IMG/VR virus record: IMGVR_UViG_2531839485_000010
Origin: a virus
Lineage: Duplodnaviria; Heunggongvirae; Uroviricota; Caudoviricetes
Strand: one strand, 5' to 3'
Length of the DNA stretch: 27,146 nt
Part shown: piece after piece, positions 4,299-4,465 of the stretch
Layout of the letters: each line of letters starts with the position of its first letter
Numbering within the stretch: the stretch's first letter is position 1
Program-made: the position numbers and the translations under genes
Notes under the pieces: generated by a model
The model's database searches: none
Seen by the model: the letters and a program-made list of their open reading frames with translations, nothing else
Told to the model about the DNA's origin: nothing

Positions 4299-4325
4299 TT
4301 AATTTGCTCCAGATACAAGGAATGG

Positions 4326-4342
4326 CCGCAGCATGGCTACGG
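4326..4342 (-). other. Predicted RNA hairpin in the tailspike leader (CCGUAGC-CAU-GCUGCGG on the mRNA strand); arms recur upstream of the holin gene
   Basis: Seven-bp stem including one G-U pair, triloop, about 30 nt upstream of the tailspike ATG. A degenerate copy of the 5' arm (CACCGTAGCCACGCT) lies at 4440-4456. Confidence 0.4.
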
Positions 4343-4394
4343 TGAGTTTTTTGTGATAAAACAACTTTTTCGGAAGTTATTTTGTTCGCTTTTC

Positions 4395-4417
4395 GACCTA
4401 CACTTTTTGTGTAGGTC
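4395..4417. repeat. Perfect 9-bp inverted repeat GACCTACAC-ttttt-GTGTAGGTC in the ant-tailspike intergenic region
   Basis: Read directly from sequence. Confidence 0.5.
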
Positions 4418-4465
4418 TCTCCTTCAAGCTCATTGCCTAAGCGTGGCTACGGTGAATTTTGGGCA

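Follow-up and report, generated by a model that had tools for sequence, protein, structure and literature searches.

Introduction

Tandem intrinsic terminators in the late leader of phage lambda (tR' and further sites) were reportedly described by Luk and Szybalski in 1983, and hairpins that are processed by RNase III are known from T7 early mRNA and from the sib and N-leader sites of lambda. The title of Daniels et al. 1988, as cited in PMC7547250, places RNase III processing sites in lambda late RNA in vivo as well. Lambdoid boundary sequences are short non-coding sequences that lie between modules and have unrelated flanks (Clark, Inwood, Cloutier and Dhillon; bsq1 and bsq2 of CUS-3); the concept was published with the HK620 genome (Clark et al. 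2001, as cited in PMC3233612). The region 5' of the tailspike gene has been described as the hypervariable "ant moron", of which ten types were distinguished among sixteen genomes (PMC2629481). Expression of phage tRNAs in lysogens has been reported, and the late operon of BTP1 is said to begin directly after two tRNA genes (PMC7067206).

We analyzed a stretch of 27,146 nucleotides (IMG/VR virus record IMGVR_UViG_2531839485_000010; hereafter, the window), in which an earlier note had pointed out a hairpin motif common to the tailspike and holin leaders and had suggested that it acts in RNA processing, stability or translational control. We refer to the tailspike copy as hairpin A and to the holin copy as the composite hairpin. 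We assign this stem-loop to a class that is already known, that of lambdoid boundary sequences and late-leader hairpins, and not to a new mechanism. As in boundary sequences, both copies are short conserved non-coding sequences between modules (between ant/t_ant and tailspike, and between tRNA-Thr and holin), the sequences flanking hairpin A and the composite are unrelated between phages, and the element recurs across P22-like and lambda-like phages. In the GenBank record of CUS-3, the feature "bsq1; boundary sequence" covers exactly the ant-tailspike intergenic region that is homologous to the hairpin A region; the HK620 record has no boundary-sequence feature at its homologous region. The present element differs from boundary sequences in that its core is a stem-loop with strand-specific and partly compensatory variation, which points to a constraint at the RNA level, and in that this core is found at two different junctions of one genome.

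Results

Arrangement of the two leaders in the window

The late genes of the window and all copies of the motif are on the minus strand, the strand that corresponds to the late mRNA. The following genes and signals surround the two leaders:

4298..2475, minus strand: tailspike gene (open reading frame).
4296..4312, minus strand: tailspike Shine-Dalgarno GGAG and ATG, the invariant leader segment after hairpin A.
4466..4491, minus strand: t_ant, the intrinsic terminator after ant, 14 nt upstream of the distal repeat copy (terminator scan).
5261..4509, minus strand: ant-like open reading frame, with t_ant after it.
24176..23961, minus strand: S21-type holin gene (open reading frame).
24370..24295, minus strand: tRNA-Thr (Rfam match; a tRNA is annotated in phage 21 and Sf6).
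24450..24376, minus strand: tRNA-Asn (Rfam match; a tRNA is annotated in phage 21 and Sf6).
24295..24450, minus strand: tRNA-Asn/tRNA-Thr cassette, closed by the composite hairpin.
24454..24498, minus strand: phage-21-type tR', the terminator of the late leader that immediately precedes tRNA-Asn (phage 21 annotation; fold; terminator index).

The structural genes are ~95% identical to those of CUS-3-like P22-type coliphages, and the Q/pR'/tR'/tRNA/holin region is 99.7% identical to that of phage 21. The window is a mosaic, in which a phage-21 late control and lysis region (23950-24600, 99.7%) is joined to CUS-3-like morphogenesis genes (2400-23000, ~95%). At the site homologous to t_ant, a terminator is annotated in the records of P22 and epsilon34. 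A full-length match to the Rfam sar RNA (RF00262, 81.8 bits; window 5440-5507, plus strand) identifies the region upstream of the tailspike gene as a P22-type immI/ant moron. Two terminator stems of this moron, at 4468-4490 and 6567-6589, are 83% alike (AAAAAACCCAGCCGAAGCTGGGT and AAAAAACCCACCTGACGGTGGGT), and the stem at 6567-6589 is the counterpart of the tMNT annotated in HK620. The ant-like antirepressor frame (4509-5438) contains an in-frame TAA at codon 53 (…QFTKIK*RFK…; 5280-5282, minus strand), and for this reason the antirepressor of this phage or prophage is probably inactive. Window-wide, the Rfam matches were only sar and the two tRNAs, and at both element sites Rfam gave nothing better than E = 0.75.

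Hairpin A and its surroundings in the tailspike leader

The tailspike leader contains these features:

4326..4342, minus strand: hairpin A, CCGUAGC-CAU-GCUGCGG, 7 bp including one U·G (predicted fold).
4322..4350, minus strand: proximal copy of a 29-nt direct repeat, which holds hairpin A (repeat search; alignment).
4352..4383, minus strand: 32-nt segment with a small 10-bp hairpin (4358-4383), present in the P22/window-type 110-nt unit only.
4395..4417, minus strand: middle hairpin GACCUACAC-AAAAA-GUGUAGGUC, within the 110-nt unit between the repeat copies (fold; covariation).
4432..4460, minus strand: distal copy of the 29-nt direct repeat, which holds the degenerate hairpin B (4436-4452).

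The 7-bp triloop hairpin that had been placed about 30 nt upstream of the tailspike start was recovered by folding, with the arms CCGTAGC and GCTGCGG, the loop CAU, and a distance of 27 nt from its end to the ATG (4296-4298) and of 15 nt to the Shine-Dalgarno GGAG. Alone, it had a predicted energy of -10.4 kcal/mol; the 62-nt leader, with a second small helix, reached -13.4 kcal/mol. Hairpin A is followed by CCAUUCCUUG, which holds no uninterrupted U tract. Just 3' of t_ant, UGCCCA (4461-4466) is predicted to pair with the tailspike Shine-Dalgarno region UGGAGCA (4306-4312) across hairpin A.

The 9-mer CCGTAGCCA occurs four times in the window, on the minus strand only (4217-4225, 4334-4342, 4444-4452 and 24278-24286); 0.12 occurrences would be expected by chance, and a count of four was reached in none of 100 shuffles. 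A second 9-mer, GCTGCGGCC, occurs twice (4324-4332 and 24237-24245), and the chance of both 9-mers lying in order within 60 nt at the second site was estimated as ~3e-5. The copy of CCGTAGCCA at 4217-4225 is inside the tailspike open reading frame, where it codes within K-A-V-A-N-G, and it looks like a coding coincidence, because the 9-mer has altered bases at this place in P22 and epsilon34 (GCTGTTGCT in P22).

A degenerate copy of the motif had been reported at 4440-4456. This copy is real, although it lies at 4436-4452, and is the distal half of a 110-nt duplication: the direct repeats at 4322-4350 and 4432-4460 are 29 nt long, 83% alike and spaced with a period of 110 nt. Hairpin B has two mismatches in its 3' arm and does not fold. 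P22 also has a 110-nt direct duplication of the tailspike leader, and the 32-nt segment at 4352-4383 is missing from the 78-nt unit of other phages. As hairpins A and B represent one local duplication, the window contains two independent loci of the motif and not three.

The composite hairpin of the holin leader

In the holin leader, we distinguished three features:

24238..24287, minus strand: composite hairpin, an 8-bp outer stem GCCGUAGC/GCUGCGGC around a 12-bp inner stem (predicted fold).
24224..24237, minus strand: tail CUUCUUUUUUCCCC, a terminator-like U run directly 3' of the composite, in S21-type leaders only.
24235..24293, minus strand: 59-nt island common to the window and phage lambda (~44,950-45,008) (alignment; entropy profile).

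The same arms had been described about 20 kb away as the outer stem of a larger inverted repeat before the holin gene, and our folding agreed with this description, both hairpins forming in the predicted folds of their leaders. The composite is 50 nt long, and its outer stem consists of the arms of hairpin A plus one G-C pair. It folded at -25.5 kcal/mol (z = -4.8) into stems of 8 and 12 bp that are interrupted by a 3x1 internal loop and a single bulge, the inner palindrome (24246-24277) accounting for 32 nt. The composite is located 7 nt after the end of tRNA-Thr and 61 nt before the S21 holin, and no hairpin other than this one was found between the tRNAs and S21 in the window.

Similar to the terminators of the lambda late leader and of tRNA operons, the composite forms a stable sense-strand hairpin 3' of tR' and the tRNAs, with a U run in S21-type leaders. 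It differs from them in its long, irregular stem and interrupted U run, and the tailspike copy never has a U run. Both the composite and hairpin A are GC-rich stem-loops on the transcribed strand, as terminators are. The U run in the tail of the composite (CUUCUUUUUU) is interrupted, and a simple terminator index of the d'Aubenton-Carafa type gave -26 for the composite, which is below threshold, +24 for t_ant and +17 for tR'. A promoter and terminator scan found t_ant and missed the lambda tR', the 21-type tR' and the composite, and is uninformative here.

The composite also resembles RNase III sites, in that its two stacked helices, which include an internal loop, add up to ~20 bp and in that it lies in a long polycistronic transcript between a tRNA segment and mRNA. 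The helix length of such sites (~20 bp, two turns) is predicted to be reached by the composite only, hairpin A being too short at 7-11 bp and the lambda copy having a weak inner stem (-17 kcal/mol); as a candidate for RNase III in lambda, the tR' hairpin is just as good. Hairpin A shares with the ompA 5' stem-loop and other obstacles to RNase E its layout only, namely a stem-loop shortly upstream of the ribosome binding site with an A/C-rich single-stranded linker and another hairpin before it.

Homology of the tailspike and holin elements

The tailspike and holin elements have identical arms with a U·G wobble at the same position, and their flanks are partly common to both (AACU.A before the stem, UUC after it). 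We built a covariance model, R1, from 30 composite hairpins only. Against the window, R1 returned hairpin A as its second-best match (E = 0.055), and against the whole P22 genome, the tailspike hairpin was its best match; in both the window and P22, it aligned hairpin A as a composite that lacks the 32-nt inner hairpin, with matching flanks. The proposal that the sharing is not due to chance was thus borne out by the arms, the wobble, the flanks and the R1 match, from which we judge that hairpin A and the composite are homologous, not convergent.

Across ~2.3 Mb of DNA from related phages, tailspike leaders contained 103 simple copies, and 121 long copies followed tRNA-Thr. The few exact copies outside both of these bins were the late-leader composite of lambda and the distal repeats of two-copy tailspike leaders; the remaining pattern matches were loose only, the true element being confined to the two contexts. 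A gapped scan of IMG/VR, whose range ended one nt below the 32-nt gap of the composite, gave matches with a gap of >1 nt that were due to chance and lay in unrelated GC-rich contigs. A similar hairpin in locus L160, within a small open reading frame, was also rejected as a chance match. The link of the tailspike copy to the late-leader copy, and the origin of the late-leader copy as a tRNA trailer (see below), may be new.

Conservation of hairpin A among tailspike leaders

A search of related phages for the motif, which had been proposed as a check, found it conserved in >100 tailspike leaders and >240 late leaders. We aligned 123 IMG/VR tailspike leaders by anchoring them on the invariant segment from the Shine-Dalgarno sequence to the ATG, and hairpin A was present in nearly all of them (>100 P22-like). 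At the 5' edge of hairpin A (position -30), the column entropy dropped from >1 bit to <0.5 bit. Mean entropy was 0.26 bit in the stem columns, 0.70 in the loop and 0.68-1.02 at the adjoining codon positions; the tailspike leader and the stem were more conserved than the adjacent first and second codon positions. At least seven unrelated classes of sequence flank hairpin A on the 5' side, and the break lies at the edge of the hairpin.

Several leaders depart from this common form. In class f leaders, the 5' arm has been replaced (by CUGUGGC or CUGCGGC) and still pairs, and in phage L the flanks lengthen the stem to 11 bp. Hairpins of other sequence are found at the position of hairpin A in g341c and Sf6, and in g341c homology to hairpin A can still be recognised in the 3' arm and in the leader that follows. 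In more distant phages (APSE-2, phiSG1 and Kc259), the tailspike gene is not preceded by a hairpin. The divergent leaders were obtained by tblastn against phage records; a search with the tailspike head-binding domain gave near-identical relatives only. Three leaders without hairpin A show a deletion between CTGCGGC repeats.

Loci that keep t_ant comprise 68 with one copy of the repeat, 14 with two copies 78 nt apart and six with two copies 110 nt apart, P22 and the window being among these six; 41 further loci have no t_ant and have a divergently transcribed gene upstream. The distal hairpin of two-copy leaders occurs in three to four sequence versions, some of them intact, and the middle hairpin in three, and these versions are found in varying combinations (IMG/VR loci L025, L103, L112, L178 and L209), which shows that this small structured leader has undergone repeated recombination within ~100 nt. 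The clearest covariation in the region is that of the middle hairpin, in which four pairs have compensatory double changes among eight leaders; its apical pair, for example, is C-G in the window and A-U in P22.

The composite in late leaders and its association with tRNA genes

The composite follows tRNA-Thr in 122 IMG/VR loci. In all, 243 late leaders with the composite were compared, including those of lambda, 21 and Sf6. Across them, entropy within the island was 0-0.5 bit and the flanks were variable, with four main types of 5' flank and three types of 3' leader (S21, lambda S and a third). Lambda, which is without tRNAs, has the composite roughly 175 nt before S. Between the window and lambda, only the 59-nt island around the composite aligns, the sequence on either side being unrelated, and the composite flanks of lambda and phage 21 are likewise unrelated to each other.

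On the 5' side, the composite is flanked by the 3' end of tRNA-Thr, by a decayed tRNA or, as in lambda, by shorter remnants of the decayed tRNA, and in all 243 loci it is located 7 nt downstream of this 3' end or remnant. Because this spacing is constant to intact and decayed tRNAs, we take it that the composite originated as the hairpin in the 3' trailer of a tRNA gene. The decayed tRNA 3' half that precedes the composite in lambda-type leaders comprises a T arm (GGTTCGATTCC), an acceptor strand, A and CCC; ARAGORN called no gene in the decayed tRNA of these leaders. The decayed tRNA of L440 lies ~60 nt upstream of the composite and has an anticodon-stem-like segment upstream, and in lambda (L350, 530-548) only the last ~10 nt of the decayed tRNA are left. 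A separate search for tRNA-Asn/Thr remnants upstream of the lambda hairpin by local alignment did no better than shuffles and was discarded.

In JLK-2012, the tRNA cluster is followed at the corresponding position by a canonical terminator, and lambda-S-type leaders have a further GC-rich hairpin with GUUUUG downstream. Most copies of the composite are without the U run (in the lambda-S type, the sequence is CUUCUACAC). No composite element was found in the holin leaders of P22 and HK620. These two leaders carry another hairpin, CCCAG…CTGGG (HK620, L353 16344-16384; P22, L009 ~38055-38085), which, when read against the direction of late transcription, resembles a terminator with a U run.

Pairing on the two strands and compensatory change

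Among 50 distinct variants of hairpin A, 96.6% of the stem cells were paired on the sense strand, relative to 80.6% on the antisense strand; for 30 variants of the composite, the values were 97.2% and 82.0%, respectively. On the antisense strand, hairpin A has a central C·A mismatch, to which 12 variants add a second C·A, and the composite is ~6 kcal/mol weaker and has no U run. Pair 2 of hairpin A changes from C-G through U·G to U-A, pair 4 is either U·G or C-G, and pair 5 is either A-U or G·U (G·U in 12 variants). Loop positions were more variable than stem positions.

The compensatory changes in relatives for which a search had been suggested were found in part. Double changes affect one pair in hairpin A and three pairs in the composite, those of the composite being chiefly in the divergent L312/L321 copy (outer G-C to A-U, inner U-A to C-G). 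However, their number is modest, and the sampled copies are close relatives with a mean column identity of 92-93%, so that recent common descent could account for much of the conservation. Taken together, the strand bias, the difference between loop and stem, the compensatory changes and the re-created pairing suggest a constraint on the late-strand RNA, and variation of this kind speaks for a structure formed by the late mRNA.

Discussion

The reading that we prefer, and to which we would give an even chance of being correct, is that of a terminator-derived RNA stem-loop on the late strand that closes accessory cassettes (the tRNAs and the ant moron) off from essential late genes. A terminator-derived stem-loop is favoured by the position of the element after such cassettes, by the terminator at the equivalent place in JLK-2012, by the expression of phage tRNAs in lysogens, and by the lack of any other hairpin between the tRNAs and S21 in the window. 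One old lambdoid late-operon stem-loop would then exist in two derived forms, each marking the 3' edge of an accessory cassette. On the holin side, the composite may end or trim transcripts that are not antiterminated (leak-through from tR', and tRNA precursors), through weak intrinsic termination, nuclease processing at the ~20-bp stem, or both, and the lysis genes would be silent until a Q-modified RNA polymerase reads through. On the tailspike side, only the basal 7-bp stem would be left, just past the genuine terminator of the ant/immI moron. Because it has no U run, the tailspike copy is less likely to act as a terminator than to be a processing barrier, a hairpin that stabilises the tailspike cistron, or a vestige. 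We infer these roles in termination, processing or stability from the arrangement and predicted folds, and some observations count against this reading: the interrupted U run of the composite, its low index and the many copies without a U run argue against termination, and hairpin A, with 7 bp and no U run, is too short for processing by RNase III.

The same junctions could also be explained at the level of DNA, if the motif were a boundary sequence in the strict sense, that is, a short patch of homology that serves as a crossover point for cassettes and has no role as RNA. Such a patch would account for the 5' flank of hairpin A breaking at its edge in at least seven unrelated classes, for the 59-nt island with its four main 5' and three 3' flank types, and for the mixture of one-copy and two-copy leaders (78 or 110 nt) with shuffled sub-hairpins, which is as expected from crossovers at a repeat; it also agrees with the bsq1 annotation of CUS-3 and with the published concept (as cited in PMC3233612). 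However, a strand-specific G·U pattern and compensatory changes are unexpected for a pure homology patch, as are loops that vary more than stems and unrelated 5' arms that restore pairing, and 17 nt is short for efficient homologous recombination. We therefore regard this explanation as rather unlikely. It is compatible with an RNA function, because a conserved functional element automatically becomes the edge of a breakpoint, and a stem-loop that is kept while its neighbours are exchanged would be seen as the edge of mosaic modules. Selection might also be absent altogether, the motif being an inherited relic of an old tRNA-gene terminator that was partly deleted, was copied once to the tailspike leader, and looks conserved through the recent spread of modules. 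A mean column identity of 92-93% in the sample, a U run that most copies have lost, the degenerate hairpin B of P22 and the window, the deletion of hairpin A between CTGCGGC repeats in three leaders, and the absence of the element from more distant phages would all fit a relic. A relic would not be expected to be more conserved, as leader and stem are, than the adjacent codon positions 1 and 2, nor to follow the compensatory path from C-G through U·G to U-A or to acquire the double changes seen in L312, nor would independent hairpins of other sequence be expected at the same position in Sf6 and g341c; on this balance we hold it to be unlikely.

Translational control, which was among the functions that the earlier note proposed, did not stand up. 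An operator that governs access of ribosomes to the tailspike and holin starts would suit a hairpin located 15 nt upstream of the Shine-Dalgarno sequence, and in t_ant-type leaders UGCCCA could pair with the Shine-Dalgarno region across hairpin A. Nevertheless, the predicted partner of the Shine-Dalgarno sequence differs between leader classes, and so there is no conserved sequestering structure; the UGCCCA pairing is absent from other leader classes and shows no covariation, and sequestration of the Shine-Dalgarno sequence was rejected as a candidate. In addition, the Shine-Dalgarno sequence and start codon are outside the hairpin itself, and the composite lies 61 nt from the S21 start in leaders whose downstream parts differ among phages. 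We consider such an operator scarcely probable at all. It is also very improbable that the motif serves the opposite strand, where it could be, for instance, the terminator of an antisense RNA like the STnc6030 of BTP1 or another structure in such an RNA. The STnc6030 RNA spans the 5' end of the BTP1 tailspike gene (PMC7067206), and the A-rich linker 5' of hairpin A would read as a U-rich tract after the stem on that strand; set against this are the central C·A mismatch, the lower pairing (80.6% versus 96.6%) and the second C·A of 12 variants, as well as a composite that is ~6 kcal/mol weaker in its antisense form and has no U run there.

A broader version of the preferred reading, in which the late-strand stem-loop is a portable cassette-end element that is at once an RNA insulator of the late genes and a DNA joint for the insertion and swapping of cassettes, seems to us quite unlikely, as does the alternative that the tailspike leader is an unrecognised structured regulatory RNA. 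Were the double role true, it would explain why morons have built up at exactly two places in the late operon. In the regulatory RNA variant, the structure would consist of three hairpins in P22-like phages, namely the distal hairpin, the covarying middle hairpin and hairpin A.

If the stem-loop is a relic only, it would still be useful as a marker of module edges in the comparison of phage genomes. If, instead, it sets transcript ends, then the tRNA and immunity cassettes of a prophage could be expressed without leakage into the lysis genes or wasteful production of tailspike. It would also add to P22 and lambda an element that was matched by no Rfam family here, and would provide a concrete case of the debated boundary sequences that can be mutated. 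Such a case could show whether the junctions of mosaic phage genomes reflect targeted recombination or selection on a small RNA.
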